In this document: positions 8 to 20,007 of the stretch, piece by piece
Layout of the letters: each line of letters starts with the position of its first letter
Position numbering within the stretch: position 1 is the stretch's first letter
Virus genome (UHGV): UHGV-0349104
Strand: one strand, 5' to 3'
Length of the DNA stretch: 44,636 bases
DNA from: a virus
Made by a program: the position numbers and the translations under genes
The notes under the pieces: model-generated
Database searches by the model: none
What the model saw: only the letters and a program-made list of their open reading frames with translations
Told to the model about the DNA's origin: nothing

Positions 8-202
8 TTGATGGAGCACAAAATTTCTGCTCGTCGTTTGGCTCTTGAAGCAGGTGTTACCCCGGTAACCGTAACTCGCGTGTTATCTCGTGAAAGGAAA
101 GATATGGTTTCTGCAAAAGCTGATGCGCTGCGGGATGCTATGTCTCGGATAGCCGCTCCCAATACTCCCAGCGAACCCGAAGAGGTAAGCCATGCTGACT
201 GA
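8..202 (+). CDS. small HTH DNA-binding protein (putative early regulator)
   Basis: 64-aa ORF with helix-turn-helix-like segment RRLALEAGVTPVTVTRVL; family not recognised. Confidence 0.35.
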   Translation: MMEHKISARRLALEAGVTPVTVTRVLSRERKDMVSAKADALRDAMSRIAAPNTPSEPEEVSHAD

Positions 203-473
203 TTTTTTGATCGCCATCGGCGTCGTTGTCGTCGTGGCCTTCATCTTTTCCCCGGCGCGCTAGACCCTCAGCGCATCGCCTGACCACAGCCTCGGGCGTC
301 GGGTACTCCGCGACGCGGTACGCCCTCCAGCGGATGACGCCACAGGACAGGATGCGGACGCGCCACACGGGGCCGCGCCGGGTGATAAGCAGGTGAATGG
401 CAGGGGATGACATGAGGCAAGTCTAACTCAACCCCCATTCACGTCATGATGGAAATTTTCAGAGGTTTTCAAG

Positions 474-998
474 ATGCCCGACTACAAGAACATGAGCGCG
501 AAAGAAGCTCTCAGAGAAGCCAAAGACGCCAGCGGCATGACCGCCGAAGAGATCGCGCGCGGGCTTGGCATCTCGGCTTCACACATGCGGCGGTATCTCG
601 ATGCGGGGGACAGCTATTTTCCGAGCCTCAGCACGATCCCGGCGCTATGCACAGTGATGCGGAATACGATCTTGCTCCAGTGGCTTGAAGCCCAAACCGC
701 TCCAGAAGCGCCTATTCCCGTTTCCCCGGCGGAAAGCAGAGCCGATGTGCTCACGTCCGTGGCCTCGGCGGGCGCAGCCCTCGGAACGGTGCAGGGAATG
801 CTTTCCGGGGTGAAGATCATCCATCCGGCGAACGCCCGCGAAATCCGGTCGGCGCTCGGGGACGTGATCACGGCCTGCCGCCGGGTGCAAGTACAGCTTC
901 AACCCGTAGCGTCCGCCCGCGACCGTGCGGAATGCCTTGCTTGTGAGCATCCTGAGCCGAAAAGATCATGGTGGAAAAAGATCAGGGGAGGAAGATGA
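474..998 (+). CDS. putative HTH transcriptional regulator
   Basis: ORF with HTH-like segment MTAEEIARGLGISASHMRRYL; TGA stop overlaps downstream ATGATG start. Confidence 0.4.
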   Translation: MPDYKNMSAKEALREAKDASGMTAEEIARGLGISASHMRRYLDAGDSYFPSLSTIPALCTVMRNTILLQWLEAQTAPEAPIPVSPAESRADVLTSVASAGAALGTVQGMLSGVKIIHPANAREIRSALGDVITACRRVQVQLQPVASARDRAECLACEHPEPKRSWWKKIRGGR

Positions 999-1396
999 TG
1001 CCTATTTTGATCTGCCAACAGTGCGGTCAGATGTTTGAGGTGAAACGGTACTTTGCCGAAACCGCAAAGTACTGCTCAAAAGAGTGCAAGGATAAGGCCG
1101 CACAGACGCGAGGGCCTCAAAAGTGCAAGTGCTGCGGAAAAGAATTTCCAGCGAAAGGGAATGCAGCTTTTTGCGACAAGGCTTGTAGGTATGCTTTCAG
1201 AGCCGGGGTGAGCCGCGAAGAATGGCTTGAAGCTCATCCACAGAGCAATCAGTCAACACTTTTCAAGCGTAAGTGCCATGACTGCGGGAAGCCCACAAAC
1301 AATTACAGGTGTTCAGCTTGTTGGGAAAAGCTCCGCAGCGAATCTGAAACGGGTGGTATCCCGGAATACCAGGTTATGGGGCAGGCATGGGTATAA
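995..1396 (+). CDS. zinc-ribbon protein with repeated CxxC...CSKxC motifs, no HNH domain
   Basis: Repeated pairs CQQCG..YCSKECKDK, CKCCG..FCDKACRYA, CHDCG..CSAC; same ribbon type as the two intein-nested HNH ORFs. Confidence 0.5.
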   Translation: MMPILICQQCGQMFEVKRYFAETAKYCSKECKDKAAQTRGPQKCKCCGKEFPAKGNAAFCDKACRYAFRAGVSREEWLEAHPQSNQSTLFKRKCHDCGKPTNNYRCSACWEKLRSESETGGIPEYQVMGQAWV

Positions 1397-1658
1397 TAGG
1401 CCCGTGCTGCTTGGGTCGGCTTCACCGTGATGGGCGGCGCGTCCTGTGCTTTGCGGACTGGTCGAAAGAATATGGAGTTCCGGCGTGGACGGCCCGGAAC
1501 GGGTTCGTCAAAGACGTGAACTTTTGCCGTCTGTACTGCGAGAAGCGACCAGATATTGTTGAAGTGGAACTTGAAGGTTTCAAGGCATAGGCGAAAGAAA
1601 AGCCCGATGCGGGAACATCGGGCTGAAAAATAAATCAAAAAACTGAGGTGTATGAATT

Positions 1659-2297
1659 ATGCGCTATTATAGCAACAAAGTCAAGCCCATTGAAACACAG
1701 TATCATGGATATCGTTTTCGTTCACGTCTTGAAGCTAGGTGGGCTGTCTTTTTTGATGTAATGGGAATTAAGTATGAATATGAAAAAGAAGGTTTTGAAC
1801 TTTCATCTGGAAGATACCTGCCAGATTTTTGGTTGCCTGAGTGGGAAGTATGGTTTGAGGTAAAGCCTAGCTTCCCGGAAACAGAAGAACTCTATAAGTT
1901 ACAAGAATTATGTATTGAAACAGGATATGCAGCCTTATGTTCAGAAGGTATGCCAAAAGAGGAATTTTCTGGTGTATGTTTTGTATATGGGAGTTTCGTG
2001 GATGATTCTGTCACGGATAACCCGGCTATAGAACCAATATGCCTTAATATGTCTAGCTTCTTTATAAGCAATTATCCAGATGGAGATGAAGAGGCATGGC
2101 TTTTCTTAGAGGGATGGGACTCTCATTATTACTATAAAAAAAATGGCAATAAATATGTTCAATATCCAAAACGTCCTTTTATACAAATTCAAGGTGATGA
2201 AGATTATATTAAATGTGCTCTAAAATATGGACGTTTTGCAAGAGCTATAGAAAAAGCAAAGTCTGCTCGTTTTGAGTTTGGGGAAAGGGGGGAATAA
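1659..2297 (+). CDS. PD-(D/E)xK family nuclease (Hjc/VRR-NUC-like motifs), AT-rich insert
   Basis: Motifs SRLEARWAVFFD, PDFWL and FEVKP fit E..PD..(E)xK; GC drops to about 38-40% over 1640-2300 against about 60% flanks; RBS GAGGTG upstream. Confidence 0.5.
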   Translation: MRYYSNKVKPIETQYHGYRFRSRLEARWAVFFDVMGIKYEYEKEGFELSSGRYLPDFWLPEWEVWFEVKPSFPETEELYKLQELCIETGYAALCSEGMPKEEFSGVCFVYGSFVDDSVTDNPAIEPICLNMSSFFISNYPDGDEEAWLFLEGWDSHYYYKKNGNKYVQYPKRPFIQIQGDEDYIKCALKYGRFARAIEKAKSARFEFGERGE

Positions 2298-3256
2298 TGA
2301 ATACAGATTTTCGCGTATCTGTAGAGTTTTTTGCCCACCATAAAACCAAAAAACTCAAAAAGCGCCTTGGGTCGGATGGAGTTATAGCATTGCTCCAACT
2401 TTGGTCTTATGCCGCAAGATTACGTTCAGATGGGGATTTGTCGGGAATGAGCACCGAAGAGATAGAGCTTGCCGTTGACTGGAATGGGGAAGATGGCCTT
2501 TTGGTTGCGACTTTAAAGGAGGTTGGATTCCTCGATGAAGTAGATGGAACTTTTTCTCTGCATAATTGGACAGAAAACAATTCGTGGGTAGCAGGCGTAG
2601 AGACTCGTTCCGATGCTTCTCGGCTTTCGAGGATGGCTAAAGTGTTCCCTGACGAATACCAAACGCTCGTTGACGCTGGGATAAAGGGGATCAGCAAAAA
2701 AGATTACGAGTCGTTAAAGGTTGTTAACGACCGTTCAGCAGTCGTCAGAAAAATCGTTAACGACCGTTTGACGACCGTTAACGAAATGCCAAGCCCTGCC
2801 CCTGCCCCTGCTCCTGTTCCTGCCCCAATGGCATATAGTACTACCCCTGACGGGGTAGTTGTCGGCGAGAGCACGCCGACCGGACAGCAGTGTGAAGAGC
2901 AGGCTGTTGACGGGCATGGCGTGCCGTCCTGTCCTCATAAGCGCATTGTGGCCTTGTATCATGAGTTTCTTCCTGAACTTCCCGGAGTGAAAGTCTGGGA
3001 AGGGACTAGGCAGCAAAATTTGCAGGCGAGGTGGCGTGAACGTTGGAAGGCTGGGAAATATCGAACACAGGACGAAGGGATAGCGTACTGGGGAAAGCTA
3101 TTTCGGCATGTCTCGGAAAATTGCGACTGGCTTATGGGACGGGTGCAGGGCAGGAAAGGCGATAAGCCTTTCAGGGCATCGCTTGACTGGATTGTGAATG
3201 CGTCGAACTTCGCAAAACTCATTGAAGGTCGCTACGACAACCGGGAGGTGGCTTGA
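2297..3256 (+). CDS. phage replication initiation / replisome organizer protein
   Basis: C-terminal segment CPHKRIVALYHEFLPELPGVKVWEGTRQQNLQARWRE resembles conserved phage replication protein C-terminus; lies directly upstream of dnaB-like gene; PAPAPAPVPAP linker; internal iterons. Confidence 0.5.
   Translation: MNTDFRVSVEFFAHHKTKKLKKRLGSDGVIALLQLWSYAARLRSDGDLSGMSTEEIELAVDWNGEDGLLVATLKEVGFLDEVDGTFSLHNWTENNSWVAGVETRSDASRLSRMAKVFPDEYQTLVDAGIKGISKKDYESLKVVNDRSAVVRKIVNDRLTTVNEMPSPAPAPAPVPAPMAYSTTPDGVVVGESTPTGQQCEEQAVDGHGVPSCPHKRIVALYHEFLPELPGVKVWEGTRQQNLQARWRERWKAGKYRTQDEGIAYWGKLFRHVSENCDWLMGRVQGRKGDKPFRASLDWIVNASNFAKLIEGRYDNREVA
2724..2783. repeat. iteron-like direct repeats (candidate replication origin) inside initiator gene
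   Basis: GTTAACGACCGTT at 2724-2736 and 2756-2768, third ACGACCGTTAAC at 2771-2782; 32-bp spacing between first two; HpaI-like GTTAAC palindromes. Confidence 0.45.
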
Positions 3257-3257
3257 A

Positions 3258-4667
3258 ATGGCAGTCCAGACGCTTGAACGCGGCATTATGCCCCGCAGGC
3301 AGAATGCCCCAGCGCCAAAGCCCGTCATGGCCTCGGAAGCCCGCGCACAGCTTGAGTCCAGCGTCATTGCCGCGACTCTCTCGGGCATGAACCGGGATGC
3401 CCATTTGCTTGGGGATGTACTTGATATCTGCCCCGCAGGTTGTTTTGTGACGCCGGAAGCTGCGCCGCTTGCCGTGGCTCTCGATTTGCTCCGGCAGTCC
3501 GGTCAACGCCCCAACCTCACCGCGTTGGCAACGCAGATGCAATCCCGTTGGGCGAAAGATCCTGAACTTTGGCCTGCCCCGGATATGGCGCGTATGGCTG
3601 AGCTTTCTACGTCAGCGTGGGGGCTGAAAGGCCATGCCGAGAGTTTGGCCCGAAAGCTTGCCGATGAACATCGCCGGGCGGAACTCCATGCCGGATTGCT
3701 CGAAATTGCTGCGGAAGCATCGGTTTACGGCGTGGACTCCGAATACATCGCTGACCGTGCCCGCAAGCTTGTTGAAGCCTCGGGAGGGATTCAGGAAGCC
3801 GTAACTATGTCGAACATCATGGGCCGCATTCGGGCAAAGCTAGATAATCCGCAATCGCTGCGCAAAGTTCAGACTCCATGGAAAAGCTTGAACAGCGTTT
3901 TGCGTGGGGGATTCATGCCGGGGGAATTGATCGTCCTTGCCGCTCGTCCCGGCCTTGGAAAGACGGCCTTAGCCGCAAATGTGGCGTTGGGTGCCGCATG
4001 GCGCGGAATGGGTGTGCTCTTTGTCTCATGCGAGATGAGCGACGAAAGCCTTGGGCATCGCCTCATCTCCCGTGTAGGGCGTATCGATGGGCGGTTTTTC
4101 CGTGAGGGGATGGGCGTCACGCCGCAGATCCGTGGAGCTATTGACACCGCCATAGGGCAACTTGAAGCCCTCCCCCTGTCCATCGTTGAAAAGTCCACGG
4201 TTCCGATGTGCCCTCGTGAAGTCCGCAGGCTGGCGCGGGGCATCAAGGATTTAGGGCTCATCGTAGTGGACTATCTCCAGCTTTTGCATCCCGACGAGAA
4301 GAGCACCAGCAGAGAACGAGAAGTTGCGGAGATGTCACGTTCCTTTAAGCAAATGGCCCTTGATCTGCAAGTTCCTGTACTCCTGCTTTCTCAGCTTAAC
4401 CGCTCAAGCGAAGAAGGCAAGCGGGAACCCCGTGTTTCCGATCTCAGAGAGTCTGGAGCGATTGAGCAGGACGCGGACATCATCATTTTGCTGCACACCC
4501 GCGATCTGGACAGGGCTGATGCCAGACCAGACGTGAAATGCATCGTCGGGAAATCCCGCAGCACGGGAACAGGTGCATCGTTCTTGCGTTTCGAAAAAGC
4601 TTTTTCTGAGTTTACCGAGGGTGAAGCATGGGCCGGACGTCCTGCGGTACAGGAAAACGATTTGTGA
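3258..4667 (+). CDS. dnaB: replicative DNA helicase, DnaB family
   Basis: Walker A ARPGLGKTALAANV; DnaB C-domain-like VVDYLQLLHP...LLLSQLNR; start ATG 3258 behind RBS GGGAGGTGG. Confidence 0.85.
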   Translation: MAVQTLERGIMPRRQNAPAPKPVMASEARAQLESSVIAATLSGMNRDAHLLGDVLDICPAGCFVTPEAAPLAVALDLLRQSGQRPNLTALATQMQSRWAKDPELWPAPDMARMAELSTSAWGLKGHAESLARKLADEHRRAELHAGLLEIAAEASVYGVDSEYIADRARKLVEASGGIQEAVTMSNIMGRIRAKLDNPQSLRKVQTPWKSLNSVLRGGFMPGELIVLAARPGLGKTALAANVALGAAWRGMGVLFVSCEMSDESLGHRLISRVGRIDGRFFREGMGVTPQIRGAIDTAIGQLEALPLSIVEKSTVPMCPREVRRLARGIKDLGLIVVDYLQLLHPDEKSTSREREVAEMSRSFKQMALDLQVPVLLLSQLNRSSEEGKREPRVSDLRESGAIEQDADIIILLHTRDLDRADARPDVKCIVGKSRSTGTGASFLRFEKAFSEFTEGEAWAGRPAVQENDL

Positions 4668-7121: not shown

Positions 7122-7441
7122 TGTGCGGGCCGTCCTTGAGTTCCTCACCTCGTTCGTTGAACTTATCAAGCTGTGGCTGCGTCAACGGTACGGCGAACGC
7201 CGCGAGGCTGATCGTGCTGCTGTTCGTGATGACGCTGGCGGCGAGTGGGTGCAGCACAGTGGCGGAACCGACCGCCGCGACAAGCCCGGCTCCGCTGACA
7301 CCGGGGGCCGTCGTGACGGGTGAGTGGTCCTACACCTACCGGGGCGAGACGTTCACCGAGCCCGGCGAGTGGGTGCACCTGCCCGCAGGAGAGGCCGGGA
7401 ACTTGCTCCTGTGGATCAAGGGCGTTGAGGCTGGAAGCTGA
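7121..7441 (+). CDS. putative secreted/lipoprotein-like protein (possible spanin component)
   Basis: Hydrophobic stretch ARLIVLLFVMTLAASGC ending in Cys; lysis-cassette position; start uncertain. Confidence 0.3.
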   Translation: MCGPSLSSSPRSLNLSSCGCVNGTANAARLIVLLFVMTLAASGCSTVAEPTAATSPAPLTPGAVVTGEWSYTYRGETFTEPGEWVHLPAGEAGNLLLWIKGVEAGS

Positions 7442-7713
7442 TGGAGCATACACTGGACCATGAATCCCGGCTTTCCCGCATTGAGGCATTGCTCGAAGCG
7501 CTCAACCAGCGGCTTGACGACGCGATACTCACGCAACTCCGCGATCATGGAAAACGCATTCGGGATCTTGAGGATCATATCTCGGTTATGGCCGAGACGT
7601 GCGCGCGGGAACGCGGGGAGCGGCAGGGCAGCAGGACAACGGCCATCGCCATTATAACCGCCCTCTCGGGAGTTGGCGGTTGCATCGGTTCCATTGTGGG
7701 CCGGATGTTTTGA
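7441..7713 (+). CDS. coiled-coil protein with C-terminal transmembrane anchor
   Basis: Heptad-like N-terminus RLSRIEALLEALNQRLDD; C-terminal TM TAIAIITALSGVGGCIGSIV. Confidence 0.4.
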   Translation: MEHTLDHESRLSRIEALLEALNQRLDDAILTQLRDHGKRIRDLEDHISVMAETCARERGERQGSRTTAIAIITALSGVGGCIGSIVGRMF

Positions 7714-7730
7714 GAATGCCCTGTGCATGA

Positions 7731-8192
7731 ATGGACACCTACGCGCTCCAGCGTCAGCTTCTTCAGGCGGAACTTCTTCCAACGGAAAAGCTTGTAGGTA
7801 TGGTGCTCGCCCTACACATGGACAAGCGGACCGGAAAAATCCGCGTGCGGCAGGAAACCGTCGCGCAGGAGTGTGGCGTGTCTGCGCGAACAGTGCGCAG
7901 GGCCGTTGCTGCGCTCGTATCCTCCGGGGTGTTCGTCTCCGTGGCAACCGGACGCTCCTCGGTTTTGGTTGCTGGTTCTGGAAAGAGTACTGGAAGAGTG
8001 GACCGGCCACCGGTGTCCTATCAGACCGGTCACGGGTGTCCGCAATTGAAGCGGAAAAGGGCCCCTTGGGAGTATGATTTGGCGCACAGTACGAGGCCCG
8101 AGGAAGAGGAGAAACGAGGGCATGAAAGGTTTTTGAGAGAACAGGAAGAACGCAGGCCAAACGGGGGGTGCGACGATGGCTGCACGATTTGA
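7731..8192 (+). CDS. winged-HTH DNA-binding protein
   Basis: HTH-like ETVAQECGVSARTVRRAVAALV; precedes terminase small subunit. Confidence 0.35.
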   Translation: MDTYALQRQLLQAELLPTEKLVGMVLALHMDKRTGKIRVRQETVAQECGVSARTVRRAVAALVSSGVFVSVATGRSSVLVAGSGKSTGRVDRPPVSYQTGHGCPQLKRKRAPWEYDLAHSTRPEEEEKRGHERFLREQEERRPNGGCDDGCTI

Positions 8193-8721
8193 TTGGGAAT
8201 CCATCCGGGCCGAGTACGAAGTGGGGGCGAGCCAGTCCGATCTGTCCAAGCGGTACGGTGTGAGCCGGACGGCCATCCAGAAGCGCATCCGGGCCGAAGG
8301 CTGGGTGCAGGATATTTCCGGCACCGTGAACCGCATGGCGGAGGCCAAGGTTGCGGGCGTGGTTGCAGGCTGCAACACTCAAAAAAAGGCCGAAGCCCTG
8401 AACCGCGCCGCCGAAGCCAAGGCCGCCGTCATCACCCGCCACCAGCGGGAGTGGGATCGGCATCAGGCCCTCATTGATGAGGCGTTGTCCCTGGGCAGCT
8501 TCGAGAAGGCCAAGCTCGCCAAGATCACCGCCGAGACGATCAAGATCAGGCAGGAATGTGAGCGTAAGGTGTGGGGCATCGTGGACAAGGCCGCAGTGGA
8601 TCATACGTCGTCCGACGGCTCCATGTCTCCGCGTCCGGTCGATCTCTCTCGTCTTTCCCCGGATGAGCTGCTCCGGCTGACGCGGGAGGCGTTCAGGGAG
8701 ACGGGGCGGGATGGCGGGTGA
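8176..8721 (+). CDS. terS: terminase small subunit
   Basis: N-terminal HTH (QSDLSKRYGVSRTAIQKRIR), coiled middle; overlaps terminase large subunit start. Confidence 0.55.
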   Translation: MAARFDWESIRAEYEVGASQSDLSKRYGVSRTAIQKRIRAEGWVQDISGTVNRMAEAKVAGVVAGCNTQKKAEALNRAAEAKAAVITRHQREWDRHQALIDEALSLGSFEKAKLAKITAETIKIRQECERKVWGIVDKAAVDHTSSDGSMSPRPVDLSRLSPDELLRLTREAFRETGRDGG

Positions 8722-11700
8722 AGTGCTTGCGGAAATCCGCCGCGCGCTGGCCCGGAGCTGTCTCGCGGCCTTTGTGCGCTACACCATGCCCGGCTACCGC
8801 ATGGGCTGGGTGCACGAGGAAATCTGTTCCGAGCTGGATGCCTTCCTTGCCGACGTCGTAGCCGGGCGTTCCCCGCGCCTCATGCTGACCATGCCGCCCC
8901 GCCACGGGAAAAGCGAGCTGGCCTCCCGCCGCTTCCCGGCCTACGCCTTGGGCCGCTATCCCGATCTATCCGTCATTTCAACGAGCTACGCCGCCGACCT
9001 GTCCTCGCGCATGAACCGCGACGTTCAGCGCGTCATCGACAGTCCGGAATACCGGGAACTCTTCCCGGGAACAGCCCTTTACGGCAAGAATATCCGCACC
9101 GTGGGGAACGGTTCCTACCTCCGCAACTCGGATATATTCGAGGTAGTGGGGCACGCTGGATGCTACCGTTCCGCTGGCGTGGGCGGCGGCATCACGGGCA
9201 TGGGTGCGGAATGCGTTGTCATTGGAACACAAATTGCGACTCCTGACGGAGATCGCGCTATCGAGACCCTACAAGTCGGGGATAACGTGCTATCATACAA
9301 TCATCAAACGGGGGAAATTGAAACTGATATAGTGATAGCGGTAAAGGATCGATATGCAGAAGAAAGCTACCGATTACGCGATGCCCTTGGCAGAGTTCTT
9401 GAAGTTACAGGAAACCATCCGATCTTTTCACGGGGGGAATATACCCCTGCATCATCAATTGCCACGGGTGATCCTATCTTGTGCCTGGTGTGGCCTGGAG
9501 TTTGTGAGGCCGGCTTATGTGGTGGCCAAAAATATCAGGAAGGGGATGAAAGATTTCTACTGCTGCAAGGAACATTCTTGTGCCCATCATGCAGTCAAGA
9601 ACAGCAAGACGTGCCCCGGTTGTGGACGGATCATCAAACACACAGGGAGAACCAAAGGGGCAAAGACCTGCCCGGAATGTGCCGCAAAATTCAAGAAGCC
9701 GAGCCAGGTCCCTGTCGAGCATCAGCCCAGAGAAAAAATTTGCCCTATCTGCAACAAGCTCTTTATGTCTGCCCACAGGGGACGCGGTATTTTTGCCAAG
9801 TATTGCAGCAAGCGGTGCAGCGAAATTGCACACTCTATTCTGATGTCTGGCAAGGGGAATCCCCGATACCGTCACGGCATGACTCCCTTGCGGGAACAGG
9901 TGCACTCTGCGCGGGCATTCCGACAGTTTCGGCCTTTGATTTTAGACAGGGATCAGCATCGTTGTGTTCTATGTGGCAAGGAGGAAACACGGTTGGAGGT
10001 TCATCACATGGATCTTATTCCGATCAACAATGTTGCGACAAACTTGATTACGCTGTGCAGCAAGTGCCACAGGATCTTGCACGGCATGAAAGAAGAACAG
10101 TACAAGCGGGACATATTGCCAACATTGCGCGAATATACGGAACAGCACGCCGTTTTGTTGATATCCAAGTAGCACGTAATCAGAACTTCTTTGCCGGCGG
10201 TGTCCTTGTCCACAACTGCGCTATCATCGACGACCCATTCAAAGATCGGGCGTCCGCCGATTCCCCGACCATCCGCCAGAACGTCTGGGACTGGTACACG
10301 TCCACGTTGTACACGCGCCTCGCGCCCGGTGGAGGGGTGCTCATCATCAACACTCGCTGGCACATGGCTGACCTTTCCGGGCGGCTGCTTGAGGCCGCCG
10401 CACGGGGGGAGGGCGACCACTGGCGCGTGGTAAACTTCCCGGCCATCGCCACGGAGGATGAGCCGCACCGCAAGGCAGGTGAAGCCTTACACCCTGAACG
10501 CTACCCGTTGGAGCAGCTTCTTGCCATCAAGAAAGCCCTCGGCACACGCGACTGGGAGGCCCTGTACCAGCAGCGGCCTACGCCAGACGGCGGCGCCATC
10601 TTCAAATCCGAGTGGCTGCGGTTCTGGCTCCCCAAAGACCTGCCGGAGCAGTTCGACCAGCTCCTTATCTCGTGGGATATGACGTTCAAGGACGGCGACG
10701 ATACCGACTTTGTTGTGGGGCAGGTGTGGGGCCGCAAGGGGGCAGACCGCTACCTCCTCGATCAGGTCCGGCGGCGCATGGGATTTACGGACACGGTCGC
10801 CGCGTTCCGGGAGCTCGCCGCCAAATGGCCCGGCGCAACCCGCAAGCTGGTGGAAGACAAGGCCAACGGCCCGGCGGTCATCGACGCGCTGAAACATGCC
10901 GTGCCCGGTATCATCCCCGTGGAGCCGGACGGCAGCAAGACGGCTCGCGCCCATGCTGTGACTACGTTCTTCGAGGCCGGGAACGTCCTGCTCCCGCACC
11001 CTGAGCATTGCCCGTGGGCGCGGGAGTACGTCGCGGAACTGACACAGTTCCCCGGTGCGCCCCACGACGATCAATGTTTTGCTGCAGGCACTTTAGTTGC
11101 GACTTTGCGAGGGGGTATCCCAATTGAAAAAGTAAAGGAAGGTGATTTTGTTGTGACTCCTCAAGGGTTTAGGCGTGTGTTGTTCGCTGGAAAAACCGGA
11201 GAGTCTGTGTTATTGTATCGACATGGAATTTTTGCAACTGCGAATCATCCGTTCATGAAAACCAGTGGAGAAGTTTGCAAATTTGCAGAAATAGAAAAGT
11301 CTGAACTTGTTCACATGACTATAAGGGAGTTGCTAGTATGGATATTCCGAAAAGAGTTGAATTTAATGGCGTCACCTATGCCCTCATGGCAGGGGGGAAA
11401 TACTATCTTAGTCAGTCAAAAACAAACGCAGGTAGGAAAAATCCGAAGGGGCTTCATGTCGCTATTTGGGAATACTACAGTGGCAAGAAAGTCCCTAAAG
11501 GGTATGAGATTCATCACAAAGATGGTAATACACATAACAACAATTTTGACAACCTTGAGTGTTTATCACGTTGTGAACACCGCAAAACGGTTAAGCAAAA
11601 CAAAGAAAAATGCCGTAAGCACCTTGAAGAAGTACGCCCTCTTGCTACTGAGTGGCACAGGAGCGAAGAAGGCCGTGCATGGCATCGAGAGCAAAGCAGG

Positions 11701-12139
11701 AAGGCATACGCAAAAAGAGAGTATACTGAGCATGTTTGTGAGTACTGCGGCAAGACGTATAAAACGCGCCATACGGGAAAAAACCGCTTCTGTTCCCATA
11801 ATTGTGAAATCAAATGGCGATATCACAATGAATACGAGCTTGCCGAGGGTGTGTGCCAATGGTGCGGCAAACCGTTCACATACAAGACCGGAACCTGCAG
11901 AAAAAACAAAGTACGTAAATTCTGCAGCAAGTCTTGCAGCACAAGCCACTTCAACGCCCAACGCCGTGCCAGTGTATAACCTCACCGTAGAGGGCGAGCA
12001 CCTTTATTTTGCTAATGGGGTGCTCGTCCACAATTGTGACGCCACCACTCAGGCCCTCCGCGACTTCGACGCCAAACGCCCCATGTCTATCAATCCTGCT
12101 ATCCTCACTCAACCACGTATAGGGTATCGCTTCCGGTAA
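8711..12139 (+). CDS. terL: terminase large subunit precursor carrying two inteins
   Basis: N-terminal ATPase (MPPRHGKSE Walker A-like, IIDDPF Walker B region) and C-terminal nuclease region; 1142-aa ORF leaves about 487 aa of extein after removing the two inteins. Confidence 0.8.
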   Translation: MAGEVLAEIRRALARSCLAAFVRYTMPGYRMGWVHEEICSELDAFLADVVAGRSPRLMLTMPPRHGKSELASRRFPAYALGRYPDLSVISTSYAADLSSRMNRDVQRVIDSPEYRELFPGTALYGKNIRTVGNGSYLRNSDIFEVVGHAGCYRSAGVGGGITGMGAECVVIGTQIATPDGDRAIETLQVGDNVLSYNHQTGEIETDIVIAVKDRYAEESYRLRDALGRVLEVTGNHPIFSRGEYTPASSIATGDPILCLVWPGVCEAGLCGGQKYQEGDERFLLLQGTFLCPSCSQEQQDVPRLWTDHQTHRENQRGKDLPGMCRKIQEAEPGPCRASAQRKNLPYLQQALYVCPQGTRYFCQVLQQAVQRNCTLYSDVWQGESPIPSRHDSLAGTGALCAGIPTVSAFDFRQGSASLCSMWQGGNTVGGSSHGSYSDQQCCDKLDYAVQQVPQDLARHERRTVQAGHIANIARIYGTARRFVDIQVARNQNFFAGGVLVHNCAIIDDPFKDRASADSPTIRQNVWDWYTSTLYTRLAPGGGVLIINTRWHMADLSGRLLEAAARGEGDHWRVVNFPAIATEDEPHRKAGEALHPERYPLEQLLAIKKALGTRDWEALYQQRPTPDGGAIFKSEWLRFWLPKDLPEQFDQLLISWDMTFKDGDDTDFVVGQVWGRKGADRYLLDQVRRRMGFTDTVAAFRELAAKWPGATRKLVEDKANGPAVIDALKHAVPGIIPVEPDGSKTARAHAVTTFFEAGNVLLPHPEHCPWAREYVAELTQFPGAPHDDQCFAAGTLVATLRGGIPIEKVKEGDFVVTPQGFRRVLFAGKTGESVLLYRHGIFATANHPFMKTSGEVCKFAEIEKSELVHMTIRELLVWIFRKELNLMASPMPSWQGGNTILVSQKQTQVGKIRRGFMSLFGNTTVARKSLKGMRFITKMVIHITTILTTLSVYHVVNTAKRLSKTKKNAVSTLKKYALLLLSGTGAKKAVHGIESKAGRHTQKESILSMFVSTAARRIKRAIREKTASVPIIVKSNGDITMNTSLPRVCANGAANRSHTRPEPAEKTKYVNSAASLAAQATSTPNAVPVYNLTVEGEHLYFANGVLVHNCDATTQALRDFDAKRPMSINPAILTQPRIGYRFR
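9212..10216 (+). mobile_element. intein 1 in terL
   Basis: N-terminal Cys (CVVIGTQIATPDG), block B VTGNHPIF, C-terminal GGVLVHN followed by Cys+1; inserted between GMGAE and CAIIDDPF. Confidence 0.75.
9354..10172 (+). CDS. free-standing HNH endonuclease with zinc ribbons, alternate frame inside intein 1
   Basis: HNH motif RLEVHHMDLIPINNVATNLITLCSKCH; repeated Cys ribbons; ends 4 nt before intein C-terminal block; true start may lie downstream of 9354. Confidence 0.65.
   Translation: MQKKATDYAMPLAEFLKLQETIRSFHGGNIPLHHQLPRVILSCAWCGLEFVRPAYVVAKNIRKGMKDFYCCKEHSCAHHAVKNSKTCPGCGRIIKHTGRTKGAKTCPECAAKFKKPSQVPVEHQPREKICPICNKLFMSAHRGRGIFAKYCSKRCSEIAHSILMSGKGNPRYRHGMTPLREQVHSARAFRQFRPLILDRDQHRCVLCGKEETRLEVHHMDLIPINNVATNLITLCSKCHRILHGMKEEQYKRDILPTLREYTEQHAVLLISK
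11075..12034 (+). mobile_element. intein 2 in terL
   Basis: Begins CFAAGTLVATL, block B TANHPFM, ends YFANGVLVHN plus Cys+1; AT-rich interior. Confidence 0.75.
11338..11979 (+). CDS. free-standing HNH endonuclease with zinc ribbons, alternate frame inside intein 2
   Basis: N-terminal NGVTYALMAGGKYYLSQ..GYEIHHKDGNTHNNNFDNLE (HNH_3-like), then CEYCG..FCSHNCE and CQWCG..FCSKSCS ribbons; own RBS AAGGGAG. Confidence 0.7.
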   Translation: MDIPKRVEFNGVTYALMAGGKYYLSQSKTNAGRKNPKGLHVAIWEYYSGKKVPKGYEIHHKDGNTHNNNFDNLECLSRCEHRKTVKQNKEKCRKHLEEVRPLATEWHRSEEGRAWHREQSRKAYAKREYTEHVCEYCGKTYKTRHTGKNRFCSHNCEIKWRYHNEYELAEGVCQWCGKPFTYKTGTCRKNKVRKFCSKSCSTSHFNAQRRASV

Positions 12140-12194: not shown

Positions 12195-13745
12195 ATGAGC
12201 AAGAAGCGCACTTATCGCAACGCTACCTCCATAGCCCCGCAAGCCGTGCAGCCGTCGCGCCGTCTGAATCTCTCCCCGGGCGTGCGTGACGGCCTTGCTC
12301 AGCCTTTGCCCCTTACGCCCGACGACATCAGCCGGATGTACGGTCCTGCGAAGACGCTCGGCGCGCCCGAAGAAGTGCAGCTTGCAATGGACGCACAGCT
12401 TGCGGATTCCGGCGTCTATTCCCTGCTCCAGCATTCGCTTGAACTTGGCGTAGGCATCGCCCCGCAGTTCATGGGCTATGGCGTCCTCCAGAACCTCGCT
12501 CAGAACGGCTTGATCCGCGCTTGCGTCGAGACGGTATCGGACGACATGACCCGCGTGTGGATTGACTTCAAGCGTGAAGGGGAGGGCGGCGATGACTCAT
12601 TGCTCACCGACCTCGCGCAAACGTGCAAGACGTTCGGGCTCCAACGTCTTTTCCATGAAGCGACGGAACTTGTGGGCTATGAGGGCGGGGCCTTCCTTTT
12701 CATCGACACGGGGGCCATTGGCCAGGAGCTGGAACGCCCTCTGAACATCGGCCCGTACTCGGCCGAACTGCAACCCGGGGCCCCGTTGCGTTTCGTCGTC
12801 ATCGACCCGGTGAATGTCTTCCCCGGGGACTACAACAGTCTTTCGCCGCTGGAACCAGACTATTTCCGTCCCCACTGGTGGTGGGTGCTCGGACAGCGTG
12901 TGCATGCTTCCCGTCTCATCCGGCTGGTGGCCAACGAGTGTCCCGTGCTGCTGCGGCCCGCCTACAACTTTCTGGGGATTCCACAGGCGCAGATTCTCTG
13001 GGATTACGTGCTGCACTTTCAGGAGTGCCGCGCAGCCGAATCCCGGCTCCTGACCAAGTTCTCGCTGACCGTCTTCAAGACGAAGATGGAAGACATCCTG
13101 TATGCGGCTGGGGGCACGGCGCAGCTTGATGCCCGCATCCGGTACATGATCCAGTCCATGACGAATGACGGCGTACTTGCCGTGGACAAAGAGACGGAAG
13201 AGGTGGTGAAGCTGGAAACGCCGCTTTCCGGCGTGACCGACATCGTGCGCCAGTCCCTTGAAATCCTCGCCGCCTTGAACCGTACCCCGGCGGTCAAGCT
13301 GCTCGGCATCAGCCCCTCAGGTTTCAACGCCACGGGCGAATCGGACATCCGCAACTATTACGACCACGTGAGGAGCCAGCAGGAGAAGGTGCTCCGCGAC
13401 GGCATCAAGAAGGCGCTTGATTGTCTTCAGCTTCACCTGCGCGGGGAGATCGATCCGTCCGTGACCTTCGACTTCGCGCCGCTCGGCGAAAAGGACAGGG
13501 CGGCCCTTGCCATGCTCCAGAAGACCAAGGCCGACACCATCGCCGTCTACACGGATCGGGACATCATCTCTCAGGAAGAAGCCCGGCAATCACTTGCCAG
13601 CGACCCGGACAGCGGCTTCTCGGACATTGACCCAGCGGAAGTGCCGCAGGGCAACGGAATGCCTGACGCACTGCCGGAAGCCGGGGAAGAGGGCTTGATG
13701 CCCGACATCGACGATGTGGACAAGGCAGGGGCCGTCTATGGCTAA
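12195..13745 (+). CDS. portal protein (Mu gp29/DUF935-like)
   Basis: 516 aa immediately after terminase; acidic C-terminus; typical size and position. Confidence 0.6.
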   Translation: MSKKRTYRNATSIAPQAVQPSRRLNLSPGVRDGLAQPLPLTPDDISRMYGPAKTLGAPEEVQLAMDAQLADSGVYSLLQHSLELGVGIAPQFMGYGVLQNLAQNGLIRACVETVSDDMTRVWIDFKREGEGGDDSLLTDLAQTCKTFGLQRLFHEATELVGYEGGAFLFIDTGAIGQELERPLNIGPYSAELQPGAPLRFVVIDPVNVFPGDYNSLSPLEPDYFRPHWWWVLGQRVHASRLIRLVANECPVLLRPAYNFLGIPQAQILWDYVLHFQECRAAESRLLTKFSLTVFKTKMEDILYAAGGTAQLDARIRYMIQSMTNDGVLAVDKETEEVVKLETPLSGVTDIVRQSLEILAALNRTPAVKLLGISPSGFNATGESDIRNYYDHVRSQQEKVLRDGIKKALDCLQLHLRGEIDPSVTFDFAPLGEKDRAALAMLQKTKADTIAVYTDRDIISQEEARQSLASDPDSGFSDIDPAEVPQGNGMPDALPEAGEEGLMPDIDDVDKAGAVYG

Positions 13746-14520
13746 GGTCATCCGCGCCATCAAGCCCAACGCGGGCATCCGGGCGAAATACCGGAAGCGG
13801 CTGGTGTCGCTTCTCGACGAGATGCAGCGTTCCGTCGTGTGGTGGCTGCGCGCCGAGTACCGACAGCAGGAAGCTCGGATAGCGCAGGATGCATCCCCGG
13901 CAAGTGACCTGCAAGACCGCCTTAAACGCCTGTTCCGGTACTGGACGAAGCGGTGGAGGGAAAGCGCGGAGAGTTTTGCGCGGGAGTTCGTGGGCAGTAC
14001 GAGGCGGCGCACGGAAGCCAGCATGAAGCAGGCCCTCAAGGATGCGGGCTTTACGGTGAGGATGGATAGAAGCAGGGCCATGAACGACGTGGCGCGGGCT
14101 CTTTTCGAGGAAAATGTCAACCTCATCAAGTCCATCCCGCAGCACTATTTCACGGAAGTGACGGGGCTTGTACAGCGATCCGCCAGCATGGGCCGGGGCG
14201 TGGCCTTTCTTACCGACGAACTGCACAAGAGGTACGAGATCACCCGGCGCCGGGCCGAATTTATCGCCCGTGACCAGTCCAACAAAGCGACTGAGGCTCT
14301 TAAGCGGGTGCAGGACAAAGAGCTCGGCATCACCGAAGGCATCTGGGTGCATGTGCCGGGAAAAAAAACGAGCCGCCATACCCACCAGATGATGAACGGG
14401 AAAAAGTTCGTCATCGCGGAAGGGCTCTACGACTCTGACGTGAAGCGCAAGGTGCTTTGCGGCGAGCTTCCGGGGTGCCAATGCACGTATCGGTCCGTCA
14501 TCCCTGAATTTGGAGACTAG
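13738..14520 (+). CDS. head morphogenesis protein (Mu F / SPP1 gp7 family)
   Basis: C-terminal region ARDQSNKATEAL...GIWVHVPGKKTSRHTHQMMNGKKF typical of Phage_Mu_F domain; ATG overlaps portal stop. Confidence 0.6.
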   Translation: MAKVIRAIKPNAGIRAKYRKRLVSLLDEMQRSVVWWLRAEYRQQEARIAQDASPASDLQDRLKRLFRYWTKRWRESAESFAREFVGSTRRRTEASMKQALKDAGFTVRMDRSRAMNDVARALFEENVNLIKSIPQHYFTEVTGLVQRSASMGRGVAFLTDELHKRYEITRRRAEFIARDQSNKATEALKRVQDKELGITEGIWVHVPGKKTSRHTHQMMNGKKFVIAEGLYDSDVKRKVLCGELPGCQCTYRSVIPEFGD

Positions 14521-16236
<1,716 letters not shown>

Positions 16237-16246
16237 GAGGCACACC

Positions 16247-16885
16247 ATGCCTTTGCAGTCCCAAGTCAATCTCTCCGTCGCTCCCGGCGTCGCTGGCGAT
16301 AAAGCGACGCCCGACCAGAGCATCTACACCCCGCTCAACCCTCTGGCGGCGGTGGCCCTCCCTGTGGGGCGCTTCGTCTTCCCCGTCGTGGATTCCGGCG
16401 TGATCGACAACACGCAGGCCACCAACGTTGCTGGCACCGCCACAGCCGTGCTCGGCTTCGTGGAGCGCGTCATCAACTACGTGAACTACGAACTGCTTTC
16501 TGACGGCACTTTGACCGTCCCGGCAGGCTCGAACCTCACCGTGGCCGTAAAGGGCGACTATTGGGCCGTTTCCACGACCAAGGCCACGGTGGGGCAGGCC
16601 GTCCTTGCCTCCACCGCTGACGGTTCAATCAGCACCGGGACCCCCGACGCCACGCACCTCGATACGGGGTGGGTCGTCAAGACGCCCGGCGAAATCGGGG
16701 AACCGATCATCATCAGCAATTGGGGACAGGCCGCAGCGTCGGGATCCGGCGGCGACACCTCGAACCTGATGCAGAAAGATTTCAGCAACGCCACCGGAGC
16801 GCTCGGCGTGGCCAACGGCGGAACTGGCGCAACCACTGCGGAACAGGACCGCACCAACCTCGGCGCAGCCGCCGCCGGAGCGTAG
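16247..16885 (+). CDS. putative head structural / decoration protein
   Basis: 212 aa Gly/Thr/Ala-rich; strong RBS AGGAGG; sits between scaffold and major capsid. Confidence 0.35.
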   Translation: MPLQSQVNLSVAPGVAGDKATPDQSIYTPLNPLAAVALPVGRFVFPVVDSGVIDNTQATNVAGTATAVLGFVERVINYVNYELLSDGTLTVPAGSNLTVAVKGDYWAVSTTKATVGQAVLASTADGSISTGTPDATHLDTGWVVKTPGEIGEPIIISNWGQAAASGSGGDTSNLMQKDFSNATGALGVANGGTGATTAEQDRTNLGAAAAGA

Positions 16886-16895
16886 GAGGTACTAT

Positions 16896-17909
16896 ATGAA
16901 TCCGACTTTTGAACAGGCCAAGCGCTACGGCTTTATCTTCCCGGGCGCCCGCATGTGGGCAACCCCGGAGAACCGCGCTCGCATCGCGCAGGACGCCGCG
17001 CTCATCACTACTCCGAACACGACCGTCCCCGCCGAGCTTCTGGCGTATATCGACCCGATGGTCATCGAAATCCTGACCGCGCCCCGGCGCGCCCGTGAAA
17101 TCTTCGGTGAAGAGAAGAAGGGCGATTGGACGACCCCGTACATGAAGTGGCGCGTGGACGAAATGACTGGAAAGACCGAGCCGTATTCCGACTATGCCAA
17201 CGGCACGACTTCGGGCGTGAACTCCGAATGGCAAACCCGCGTGCAGTACGTCTTCCAGACGTCCATCACCTACGGAGACTTTGAAGTGGACATGTCGAGC
17301 ACGGCGAAAGTTAACCTCGCTGCCTCCAAGCAGCGTGCGGCCGCCAACGTCATCGACATCGACCAGAACCGTTTCTACCTGCTCGGCGTCGCCGGGAAGG
17401 AAATCTACGGCATCCTTAACGATCCGAACCTCCCTGCTGCGATCACCGCAGGGGCCACGGGCACGGGCGGCTCCACGAAATGGGCCGACAAGACCACGGT
17501 GCAGATCTACAATGACGTCCTCGCCCTGTTCGCGCAGCTTTCCGAGCAGTCCAGCGGCCTCATTGACAAGGACACGCCCCTCAAGCTCTGCCTCTCCCCC
17601 GAACTGGCCGTTCGCCTCGGCGCGGCTACCGATTTCAACGTGTCCGTGCTGGATATGTTGAAGCGGTACTTCACCCGCATTGACATCGTGACCGTCCCCG
17701 AGCTGCACAGCATGACCGCCGGGGAAACCATGTTCCTCATCGCCCCCGAAGTGAACGGGCAGCGATCCGGCACGCTGGCCTTCGGAGAAAAGATGCGTGC
17801 TGGACGCGTCGTGCCCGACCTGTCCAGCTTCCGTCAGAAGTTCGTCGGCACCACCTACGGCGGCATCGTGCTCATGCCCTTTGCCTTTGCGCAGATGACA
17901 GGCATGTAA
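16896..17909 (+). CDS. major capsid protein
   Basis: 337 aa, RBS GGAGG, last head gene followed by strong terminator; size and position typical. Confidence 0.55.
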   Translation: MNPTFEQAKRYGFIFPGARMWATPENRARIAQDAALITTPNTTVPAELLAYIDPMVIEILTAPRRAREIFGEEKKGDWTTPYMKWRVDEMTGKTEPYSDYANGTTSGVNSEWQTRVQYVFQTSITYGDFEVDMSSTAKVNLAASKQRAAANVIDIDQNRFYLLGVAGKEIYGILNDPNLPAAITAGATGTGGSTKWADKTTVQIYNDVLALFAQLSEQSSGLIDKDTPLKLCLSPELAVRLGAATDFNVSVLDMLKRYFTRIDIVTVPELHSMTAGETMFLIAPEVNGQRSGTLAFGEKMRAGRVVPDLSSFRQKFVGTTYGGIVLMPFAFAQMTGM

Positions 17910-17932
17910 AGCTGCTGCCTTCCCCCCATGCG

Positions 17933-17972
17933 AAAGCCCCAACCGTTAAACATGCGGTTGGGGCTTTCTTTA
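17933..17972 (+). terminator. rho-independent terminator after capsid gene
   Basis: 10-bp stem GCCCCAACCG/CGGTTGGGGC, loop ttaaacatg, followed by TTTCTTT. Confidence 0.7.
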
Positions 17973-18876: not shown

Positions 18877-20007
18877 TTACCCTTTCGTTGAAAATACAAT
18901 AGCACCATTTTTTGAAAAAATAAACAATTTTTCAAAAAAAGTTTTATCGTATTTCAAGGCCGTAGCCCGGATTCGATCCGCAAAGGGGATAATATCTTCC
19001 AATTTTTCGATGTCTTCCTTTGCGTCCTTATTCTCCCCATCAAACAGTCCGACCCTCCACTGTTTTCCGTTGAAATACAGACGGCACAGAGGCTTGAGCC
19101 TGTTGTCGTCAAGAAGGATAGAGCAGTAGCTGATACTGTCCCGCATGGCTACGCGCCCCGGATCAACGGTGCCCACCAGAAGCGATTTGACAAGGTAATA
19201 CGCCTCTTTTTCTTCCTCGGTGGTGACTATACGCGAATCCTGCTCTTTTCCTTGTGGGGCATCTTCGGATTCTATCTCTACAATTTCCGGTTTCTGCTGC
19301 GTCATGGCATTTTTCAATCGGTCGTTGATGCGGTCGTTGATGAACTGGTCAAGCGCAGCGGTAAGGATTGGAGTGAAGCGATCCAGAACGTTTTGCGTGA
19401 TACGCCCATCATACGTCTGTCCGATGAAAAAGCGTGCGAAATCTTCGTGGGGCGTTTCCATCTGTTCCCCCATGATGCGCTTGAACTCACGGTTGTACTT
19501 AAGTTCGTTTGCCGCGCTCATGCAGGCGTCTCGATTAAATTTGCCTTTTGCCAGCTTGCGCAGTTCCGGAAGCAGCATTTCATCCATATCGTCAAGGACG
19601 AACTCCATATAGGGTTTGCTGTCCATTTTGTTTGCTGCTTCAAGGTCGGAATAGAACCGGTAACGGTTGCCGTCCGTCAGAATGGCAATGGGGGCTTCCG
19701 TCCCGTGGAAGTAAAGCTGGAGCTGGTTGCAGTGCTTCATGTCAAGAGACGTGCCCAAAGCCTTGCATTCCAGAAGAAGGATAGGCTTGCCGTCAACAAG
19801 AATCGCATAGTCCACGCGGGCGTCCTTATATTCGCCGATGGGGGCTGAAAATTCGGGCACGACTTCCGCAGGGTTGAAAACGTCGTATCCCAGGGCCGCG
19901 ATGAAAGGCATCACCAAGGCGTTTTTCGTGGCCTCTTCGGTCTTGAGGCTATCTCCCAGATTCTTTACCTTTTTCGACAATTCAGCAATTCTTTCCGAAA
20001 AATCCAT
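18877..20007 (-). CDS. HsdR_N-type PD-(D/E)xK nuclease-like protein (stand-alone type I R N-terminal domain)
   Basis: EEATKNALVMPFIAALGYD...ARVDYAILVDGKPILLLECKALG matches type I HsdR N-terminal nuclease-fold pattern; about 250 aa of unassigned C-terminal sequence; GC about 47%. Confidence 0.5.
   Translation of the reverse strand: MDFSERIAELSKKVKNLGDSLKTEEATKNALVMPFIAALGYDVFNPAEVVPEFSAPIGEYKDARVDYAILVDGKPILLLECKALGTSLDMKHCNQLQLYFHGTEAPIAILTDGNRYRFYSDLEAANKMDSKPYMEFVLDDMDEMLLPELRKLAKGKFNRDACMSAANELKYNREFKRIMGEQMETPHEDFARFFIGQTYDGRITQNVLDRFTPILTAALDQFINDRINDRLKNAMTQQKPEIVEIESEDAPQGKEQDSRIVTTEEEKEAYYLVKSLLVGTVDPGRVAMRDSISYCSILLDDNRLKPLCRLYFNGKQWRVGLFDGENKDAKEDIEKLEDIIPFADRIRATALKYDKTFFEKLFIFSKNGAIVFSTKG

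Follow-up and report, generated by a model that had tools for sequence, protein, structure and literature searches.

Inteins whose homing endonuclease is encoded out of frame with the splicing domains are already known, although thinly characterised, and the locus described here adds an example. It lies in the viral genome UHGV-0349104, of which the whole stretch of 44,636 nucleotides (nt), hereafter the window, was analysed. The locus is the gene for the terminase large subunit (TerL), in which two inteins (intein 1 and intein 2) each enclose an HNH endonuclease gene (HNH1 and HNH2, respectively) in another reading frame. Intein 1 is very probably a class-1 Hint intein whose homing endonuclease is encoded by a gene of its own, an HNH gene nested between the splicing blocks and shifted by one base relative to their frame. 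A similar arrangement is present in TerL of brucellaphages (Tb, Pr, R/C, Wb, Bk, S708 and others), where a coding sequence annotated as ‘putative HNH endonuclease’ overlaps the terminase gene (GenBank KJ133704 and others; Tevdoradze et al. 2015, PMC4422536). The out-of-frame, intein-associated HNH was noted in one paragraph of that 2015 paper, which did not pursue dual coding. The brucellaphage HNH is homologous to HNH1 (43% identity over 88% of HNH1) and occupies the same site (GITGNRAD/C...ILVHN/CVIIDDP, slashes marking the intein ends) with the same offset and with the terminase frame open across it. The two cases differ in phage and host, and also in the start of the HNH frame, which in the brucellaphages opens with GTG after the N-terminal Hint lobe and in the window with a conserved ATG 131 nt inside this lobe. 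Further, the window has a second such intein in the same gene.

In TerL inteins of actinobacteriophages, an endonuclease VII-like homing endonuclease was found in frame 3, and antisense LAGLIDADG and VSR-like endonucleases were also reported in actinophage inteins, with HNH listed as in-frame only and with non-canonical architectures called rare (Gosselin, Arsenault & Gogarten, bioRxiv 10.1101/2025.01.02.630785). The inteins of the window share with these a sense-strand endonuclease open reading frame (ORF) that is nested out of frame in a terminase intein, flanked by its splicing blocks, and an in-frame reading of the same region without recognisable structure. The proposed origin is likewise shared, namely a free-standing homing endonuclease gene (HEG) invading an intein. 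They differ in that the nucleases of the window are of the HNH type (PF01844 and PF13392), that the hosts are not actinophages, and that 70 of 80 HNH2-type loci in the IMG/VR database are nested, as opposed to ‘rare’. For the cyanobacterial DnaX intein, a LAGLIDADG endonuclease in an alternative frame is attributed by later papers to Gorbalenya (1998), and the endonuclease frame was shown to be under purifying selection while the overlap in the extein frame evolves freely (Phillips, DeSimone & Gogarten, bioRxiv 10.64898/2026.09.14.751524). An overlapping-frame endonuclease, purifying selection on its frame and a sporadic distribution are common to this case and ours, which combines an HNH with a phage terminase rather than LAGLIDADG with a cellular dnaX gene.

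Related arrangements outside typical inteins have also been described. Arsenault et al. (2025, PMC11855218) described a ‘hidden’, out-of-frame HNH insertion, of the ShiLan type, in DNA methylases of phages. As in the window, the HNH is out of frame in a stop-free host ORF and its stop codon falls in the last bases of the insertion. However, the ShiLan insertion has no splicing domains and stays in the host protein, whereas the HNH of the window has complete Hint blocks on both sides and sits in an essential gene. In fractured genes (Dassa et al. 2009, PMC2677866), the two halves of a split intein are separated by a free-standing HEG. An HEG between the parts coding for the N- and C-intein is also what the window has, and two relatives of HNH2 (L076 and L081, see below) are arranged exactly in the fractured way. 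Unlike in those genes, no stop interrupts the extein frame of the window, which makes the intein contiguous and expected to splice in cis. In an intein-embedded HNH nuclease of 1997, as cited in later work, an HNH-type homing nuclease occupies the usual endonuclease insertion point of a Hint domain; there the nuclease belongs to the intein polypeptide, while the HNH of the window is predicted to be a separate translation product. Finally, HK97 gp74 is a terminase-associated HNH packaging factor (Kala et al. 2014), as raised for brucellaphage in PMC4422536. Compared with the literature consulted, what is new here is the extent of the arrangement, which is common in metagenomic phages, the presence of two unrelated nested HNH types in one gene, and a series of relatives that runs from free-standing to split forms.

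The terminase precursor is encoded by an ORF of 1142 amino acids (aa) at 8711..12139 (+ strand), which was taken from the ORF list and matched Pfam Terminase_6N and Terminase_6C. It contains two class-1 inteins, at 9212..10216 and 11075..12034, whose boundaries were set by alignment against intein-free terminase alleles. Removal of both leaves an extein of 487 aa, the predicted spliced product, which is 95% identical to an intein-free terminase of 491 aa that represents 966 database sequences.

Intein 1 (335 codons, + strand) is inserted directly before the Walker B-like IIDDP motif (GITGMGAE/C...HN/CAIIDDP). Its N-terminal Hint lobe (9212..9484) opens with Cys1 (9212-9214), contains block B TGNHPIF (9407-9427, with TGNH at 9407-9418) and ends at approximately GDPIL. 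The translated C-terminal blocks F and G, VDIQVARNQNFFAGGVLVHN (10157-10216), end in the terminal HN (10211-10216) and are followed by the +1 Cys (10217-10219), the whole element spanning 10157..10219. In line with the first-pass annotation, which had recognised Hint motifs at both ends, Cys1, TGNHPIF, HN and the +1 Cys were all found where it had placed them. A Pfam search with the 8711..12139 product returned Intein_splicing (PF14890, E = 2.1e-14, 54 bits against a cut-off of 35.8), Hint_2 (PF13403, E = 2.7e-14) and PF07591 (E = 4.4e-9). Across homologues the N-terminal lobe was conserved and the residues of the C-terminal block were invariant. Cys1, TxxH, HN and the +1 Cys, together with significant hidden Markov model matches and insertion at a conserved motif that is empty in close homologues, assign the element to class 1. 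As its motifs are intact and the terminase is an essential protein, we infer that intein 1 undergoes protein splicing. The interrupted extein frame that defines a split intein is absent from the window, where the precursor is a single continuous ORF of 1142 codons.

The two Hint parts are connected, in the terminase frame, by a linker of approximately 224 codons (9485..10156, + strand) without stops, which is an alternative-frame reading of the HNH gene and whose translation includes LVWPGVCEAGLCGGQK. The first-pass annotation had described this region as stop-free, devoid of endonuclease motifs and of low complexity. The first two properties were confirmed, with no endonuclease domain found by Pfam in the terminase frame, but the third was not, as the linker is rich in Q, G, L, A and R rather than strictly of low complexity.

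The HNH1 gene (9354..10172, + strand; 272 aa) is read at +1 relative to the terminase frame. As had been proposed, it encodes a zinc-ribbon HNH protein. There are three zinc-ribbon modules of the CxxC type, and residues 204-243 (nt 9963-10082) form the HNH motif (Pfam PF01844, E = 1.5e-4). Its ATG is preceded, at a distance of 5 nt, by a Shine-Dalgarno (SD)-like AAGGA (9344..9348, + strand) that lies within the intein codons V-K-D. Approximately 131 nt at its 5’ end (9354-9484) are shared with the N-terminal Hint lobe, block B among them, and this stretch may encode functional protein in both frames. At the other end, the first-pass annotation had let the ORF stop 4 nt before the C-terminal splicing block; the stop codon TAG (10170-10172) is in fact inside block F, where it is formed by the V-A codons of ‘QVA’. 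The two ORFs thus overlap at both ends with the splicing blocks, a point that the first-pass annotation had missed, as it had the like architecture of intein 2 and the earlier descriptions of such arrangements.

In order to assess whether an open terminase frame across HNH1 could be expected, stop codons were counted in 100,000 permutations of two kinds, one in which synonymous codons were exchanged so that the HNH protein stayed fixed and one in which whole codons were shuffled. The terminase frame has no stop in this region, compared with 12.6 expected under synonymous-codon permutation and 14.7 under the codon shuffle (P < 1e-5), and none of the 100,000 permutations was stop-free. The third forward frame contains 11 stops. 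When the same calculation was extended to 13 loci with an intein at the site of intein 1 (site 1), the terminase frame had 0 stops in each, against 4-20 expected.

These loci were collected by several routes. A search with the HNH1 protein retrieved homologues at 83%, 63% and 37% identity, each called as a separate gene of approximately 270-300 aa, on contigs (L001, L002/L003 and L004) with an intein at site 1, the HNH at a +1 offset and a stop-free terminase frame. A search with the extein added two more cases, in terminases P0098 and P0008 (L005 and L008), so that HNH identities among the metagenomic site-1 relatives were 83%, 63-64%, 38% and 37%. IMG/VR contributed approximately 11 loci (L089-L096, L100/101 and L128), and others came from GenBank, with Brucella phages including Tbilisi, and from representative bacterial genomes, with a Paraburkholderia prophage. 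The scan of the latter genomes with the HNH1 alignment gave this single clear prophage case (Paraburkholderia adhaesiva) and a Polaromonas metagenome-assembled genome (MAG) that duplicates an IMG/VR contig. In thirteen related loci, with HNH identities of 29-100%, the insertion site and the offset were the same and both frames were open. More distant IMG/VR matches to HNH1 (below approximately 30% identity, L097-L127) were rejected, as they proved to be ordinary, non-nested HNH genes.

One relative differs in length. In L008:2457-3032 (GCA_024181985.1, BRDB01019449.1; terminase P0008), the nested HNH has lost 79 codons and with them two zinc ribbons, apparently via a deletion between two YCCK repeats, and both frames are still open. 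This gene may be an endonuclease caught in the process of decay.

Which of the two frames is selected was addressed by comparing substitutions and protein identities over the same DNA. In the region 9485-10154, which is outside the splicing blocks, 83 of 126 substitutions relative to L001 and 133 of 240 relative to L002 fell on third codon positions of the HNH frame, which are first positions of the terminase frame. Amino acid identity was higher in the HNH frame than in the terminase frame for L001 (83% vs. 59%), L002 (66% vs. 32%), L005 (42% vs. 26%) and L004 (45% vs. 35%). Further, ten residues (C204, C207, H217, H218, N226, N230, C235, C238, H239 and H243) were invariant in six HNH1 homologues of 37-83% identity, and all zinc-ligand cysteines were invariant down to 37% identity. 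Taken together, the third-position bias, the higher identity and the invariant catalytic and zinc-binding residues indicate that purifying selection acts on the HNH frame and that this is the frame with a coding function; the terminase frame is merely kept open as a linker. Structure prediction with AlphaFold2 gave a mean predicted local distance difference test score (pLDDT) of 70 for HNH1 from six sequences. For the terminase frame of intein 1 the mean was 33, with 20-30 in the linker and 59-71 in the N-terminal Hint lobe alone; as the underlying alignment of four sequences is too shallow to prove disorder of the linker, the contrast with the HNH frame is supportive only. The best local Foldseek matches of the HNH1 model, all of them weak, were HNH nucleases (Cap5, McrA and ScoMcrA).

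The same data bear on the idea that the nested HNH is a decaying, unexpressed relic, left open by inertia while the terminase frame alone is selected. Theory of the homing cycle predicts that endonucleases decay following fixation, the deletion in L008 shows that decay does occur, and expression of the HNH ORF is a prediction. However, a relic should not accumulate substitutions preferentially at its own third positions or keep an identity far above that of the linker frame, nor would its catalytic His and Asn and its zinc ligands be expected to remain invariant to 37% identity. In addition, the ORF was intact in every sampled lineage and the intein is polymorphic among near-identical exteins, which points to ongoing homing. 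We therefore regard a relic as unlikely. All tests agreed with the dual coding put forward by the first-pass annotation, namely the stop depletion, the conserved arrangement, the third-position bias of HNH1, its higher identity relative to the terminase frame and the SD-like AAGGA.

Intein 2 (320 codons, 11075..12034, + strand) has the same architecture as intein 1 and interrupts a motif of the terminase nuclease domain (HDDQ/C...VHN/CDATT, with PHDDQ upstream and CDATTQAL downstream). Its nested gene, HNH2 (11338..11979, + strand; 213 aa), lies at -1 relative to the terminase frame and encodes an HNH_3-type protein (Pfam E = 1.3e-15). An AAGGGAG at 11323-11329 ends 8 nt upstream of the start, and in block F the Y-N codons of ‘VYN’ supply its stop codon, TAA. 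No stop was found in the terminase frame across HNH2, where 2.5-3.4 were expected (P(0) = 0.007-0.015), the low expectation being due to a frame offset that makes terminase-frame stops rarer. One gene thus holds two inteins with out-of-frame HNH genes of unrelated types (PF01844 and PF13392) and at different offsets (+1 and -1). An unrelated terminase on the IMG/VR contig 3300020577_006108 (L048 = L094, ORF 173-3505, 1111 aa) also has both a nested HNH1-like gene at site 1 and a nested HNH2-like gene at site 2. The double arrangement of the window is, consequently, not unique.

The HNH2 family was sampled through 80 IMG/VR loci with identities of 30-100%. In the 70 nested cases the HNH ORF was enveloped by an ORF of 620-1259 aa, with the offset of the window in 69. 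Pfam analysis of 51 enveloping ORFs detected Hint_2 in 38 and Intein_splicing in 32, together with the terminase families Terminase_6, Terminase_3 and T7-like, and in their alignment Cys1, the His of block B and the terminal Asn were invariant. Most nested starts follow an SD-like motif, and in this family matches of at least 5 nt were present upstream of 33% of them, compared with a background of 4%. Beyond IMG/VR, the TerL intein of the C. difficile phage phiCDHM19 (L139, NC_028996.1, TerL 443-2842) carries an HNH2-type nested gene at 40% identity; in the region of the RefSeq record that was inspected, an 800-aa terminase is annotated and no HNH gene. Such a gene is also carried by the C. 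difficile phage phiCD119, where the match falls under a ‘hypothetical protein’. It is possible, albeit somewhat doubtful, that the out-of-frame arrangement is ancient and stable and dominates among the terminase inteins that bear an HNH, in a very diverse set of phages, as opposed to being a rare accident.

The motif is often AAGGAG, located approximately 20 nt upstream of the nested start (for example in L021, L024, L031, L034 and L041), where the intein frame encodes it through a conserved L-K-E-L with which the N-terminal Hint lobe ends. What looks like conservation of protein at L-K-E-L may in part be that of a ribosome-binding site.

HNH2 relatives that are not nested were found in three further settings. 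Free-standing HNH_3 homologues lie directly downstream of intein-less terminase genes or overlap their ends (L071/L077/L078/L080, L074 and L083), and those of the L071 type have NUMOD1/I-HmuI-like DNA-binding modules in place of zinc ribbons. In L087:1150-3624 (IMG/VR 3300027785_000218), the terminase contains at the intein 2 site a mini-intein of approximately 135 aa without an endonuclease, and a free-standing HNH_3 homologue begins 67 nt downstream of the terminase stop. Lastly, in L076:934-3284 (IMG/VR 3300049647_000128) and L081:1-798 (3300031760_003271), which are split-intein relatives of the fractured-gene kind, a stop-ended ORF for the N-terminal part of the terminase and the N-intein is followed by the HNH_3 gene and by an ORF of 85-86 aa that opens with the C-intein blocks (..VYNMTVD..ILKN/CDGLRY), all three in different frames. 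One homologous HNH lineage hence occurs in four forms: as a free-standing gene after a terminase that lacks an intein, as one after a terminase that contains a mini-intein, nested out of frame, and between the halves of a split intein. This series agrees with the model of the 2009 and 2025 papers in which a free-standing HEG invades an intein.

The distribution of inteins in the terminase family was then considered. They occupy four sites in varying combinations, and most members are intein-free. The sites are the P-loop, where the inteins are canonical with an in-frame LAGLIDADG, the intein 1 site, the TRWH motif and the intein 2 site. Inteins at the TRWH motif carry LAGLIDADG with the exception of L004 (a contig from Logan SRR30303828), in which a second intein, adjoining the homologue of intein 1, holds an out-of-frame Endonuclease VII ORF (1361-1834) and thereby places the Endonuclease_7 type described in actinophages beside a nested HNH; stop depletion over this ORF is not by itself significant (P = 0.03-0.22).

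Presence and absence of inteins varied among exteins that were 90-98% identical, with P0009, at 95% terminase identity, as a close intein-free relative of the window. The window shares an identical intein 2 (320/320) with P0011 and P0046, at extein identities of 95% and 90%, respectively, while intein 1 of P0008 was only 40% identical within a 97%-identical extein. Empty alleles (P0009, P0013 and others) have Ile or Val in place of the +1 Cys of filled alleles (GITGMGGH/IVIVDDP at site 1 in alleles such as P0009, HDDQ/VDATT at site 2), and at positions -2/-1 of site 1 they have GH or GD compared with AE in the window. The spliced terminase would therefore differ from empty alleles beside the Walker B and nuclease motifs, and the differing flanking residues probably reflect co-converted sequence and immunity to re-cutting. 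The sporadic distribution and the identity mismatches are the expected signatures of homing and co-conversion, and would indicate active homing.

A different role for the nested HNH would be that of a terminase-associated packaging factor comparable to HK97 gp74, placed within the terminase gene for co-expression. HNH proteins often adjoin terminase genes, this possibility was raised for brucellaphage by Tevdoradze et al., and free-standing HNH2 relatives do occur directly downstream of terminase genes. We nevertheless consider it improbable, as terminases of 95% identity have neither intein nor HNH. Moreover, the HNH is inside an intein at a catalytic motif in 70 of the 80 related loci, an identical unit of intein plus HNH is found in diverged exteins, and long zinc-ribbon arrays suit the recognition of a specific target sequence. 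Together, these features make up the pattern of a selfish element as opposed to a core component of packaging.

Two programmed shifts of the ribosome, by +1 near 9480 and by -1 near 10165, could in principle yield a conventional intein-HNH fusion from the same DNA, and the boundaries of the frames do coincide with those of the domains. This is very improbable, since two efficient shifts would be needed per intein and neither the stop-free terminase frame over the whole HNH gene nor the conserved ATG with its SD would be explained; relatives in which the HNH gene is truly separate, either downstream or between split halves, also exist. Still less credible is an artefact in which a canonical in-frame intein-HNH had its HNH frame shifted by two sequencing or assembly indels per intein, despite the match between the frame switches and the ends of the Hint lobes and a G6 homopolymer at 9432-9437 near the 5’ switch. 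A frame shifted by error should hold approximately 12-15 terminase-frame stops where there are none, and HNH1 has its own ATG, SD and stop. Further, the offset was identical in independent assemblies, in Brucella phage isolates and in a bacterial genome (29-83% identity), and an HNH in the terminase frame was found in none of approximately 13 HNH1-family loci and in none of the 80 HNH2-family loci. These comparisons exclude the two sequencing frameshifts that, according to the first-pass annotation, it would take to explain the locus away. Equally far-fetched is that the insertion is an HNH-bearing intron of group I or II, removed at the RNA level, with Hint motifs present by coincidence: group I introns of phages do often contain HNH genes, but the reading frame is continuous, the Intein_splicing and Hint matches (E ~1e-14) come with the exact geometry of Cys1, TxxH, HN and Cys+1, and a scan of the whole window gave no Rfam family, introns included, at the gathering thresholds; a scan for tRNAs was also empty.

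The reading that we prefer, an intein with a nested, separately translated HNH gene, would operate as follows. Ribosomes in the terminase frame would read through HNH1 and produce a linker of approximately 224 residues, probably unstructured, between the Hint halves, and intein 1 would splice in cis by means of Cys1, TxxH, HN and the +1 Cys, which would restore the Walker-B region of the terminase. Other ribosomes would initiate internally at the ATG at 9354, guided by the AAGGA 5 nt upstream, and release a free 272-aa zinc-ribbon HNH nuclease. This nuclease is predicted to cut intein-free terminase alleles of co-infecting phages or prophages, whose repair would copy the intein together with the nuclease gene. 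Because the terminase is essential, stop codons in its frame within the HNH gene would be lethal and purged, while the HNH frame would be held by selection for mobility. Intein 2 would follow the same mechanism with its HNH_3 gene.

Several observations weigh against this interpretation. The Pfam score of HNH1 barely exceeds the cut-off (22.3 vs. 21.4 bits), and its Foldseek matches to HNH nucleases are weak (E of at least 0.016), with no match in the PDB at E ≤ 0.001. The AlphaFold2 model of the terminase frame is of low confidence overall, so that its contrast with the HNH frame is suggestive and not decisive. SD-like motifs comparable to AAGGA are present in L001, L004 and L005, but the homologue L002 has no obvious one, and translation of HNH1 could in truth begin at a TTG or GTG (near 9460) that directly precedes the first zinc ribbon, by analogy with brucellaphage, whose HNH frame opens only past the Hint lobe. 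Lastly, a junk linker of approximately 224 residues might slow splicing.

With regard to the genomic setting, the locus is surrounded by tailed-phage genes (DnaB helicase, portal, Mu-F-like protein, major capsid and tape measure), and the terminases closest to that of the window carry the name Desulfovibrio MAG. The GC content of the inteins (0.40-0.54) is lower than that of the flanking gene (0.62-0.68). In a DNA-level search of GenBank phages, the extein alone was matched (65-75% identity) and the inteins had no relative. Long antisense ORFs (320-420 aa) were also seen opposite genes of the + strand, at 7336-8604, 13564-14532, 15082-16323, 16782-17942 and 18877-20007 (all - strand); in DNA of 62-68% GC they are most likely stop-poor shadow frames rather than genes.

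The occurrence of nesting in 70 of 80 loci of one family, and in every close relative of the other, suggests that in metagenomic phages HNH-type terminase inteins as a rule have their endonuclease in an alternative frame. In gene calling and in intein catalogues, the homing endonuclease is taken to be an intein domain, and such loci are consequently misannotated, either as an oversized terminase whose middle goes unexplained (phiCDHM19), as two unexplained overlapping genes (brucellaphages) or as suspected frameshift errors. Recognising the pattern corrects these annotations and provides a clean natural case of long, same-strand dual coding with an identifiable cause, namely that an essential gene must stay open. 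For intein engineering, it is of interest that two compact Hint domains would tolerate arbitrary linkers of approximately 220 residues, provided that splicing takes place as predicted. If true, the four forms of the HNH2 lineage are a natural series with which phylogenetics and experiment could directly test where intein-endonuclease associations and split inteins come from (‘splicing first’, with free-standing HEGs as the invaders), and the arrangement as a whole bears on the gain, exchange and loss of endonucleases by inteins and on the emergence of split inteins.

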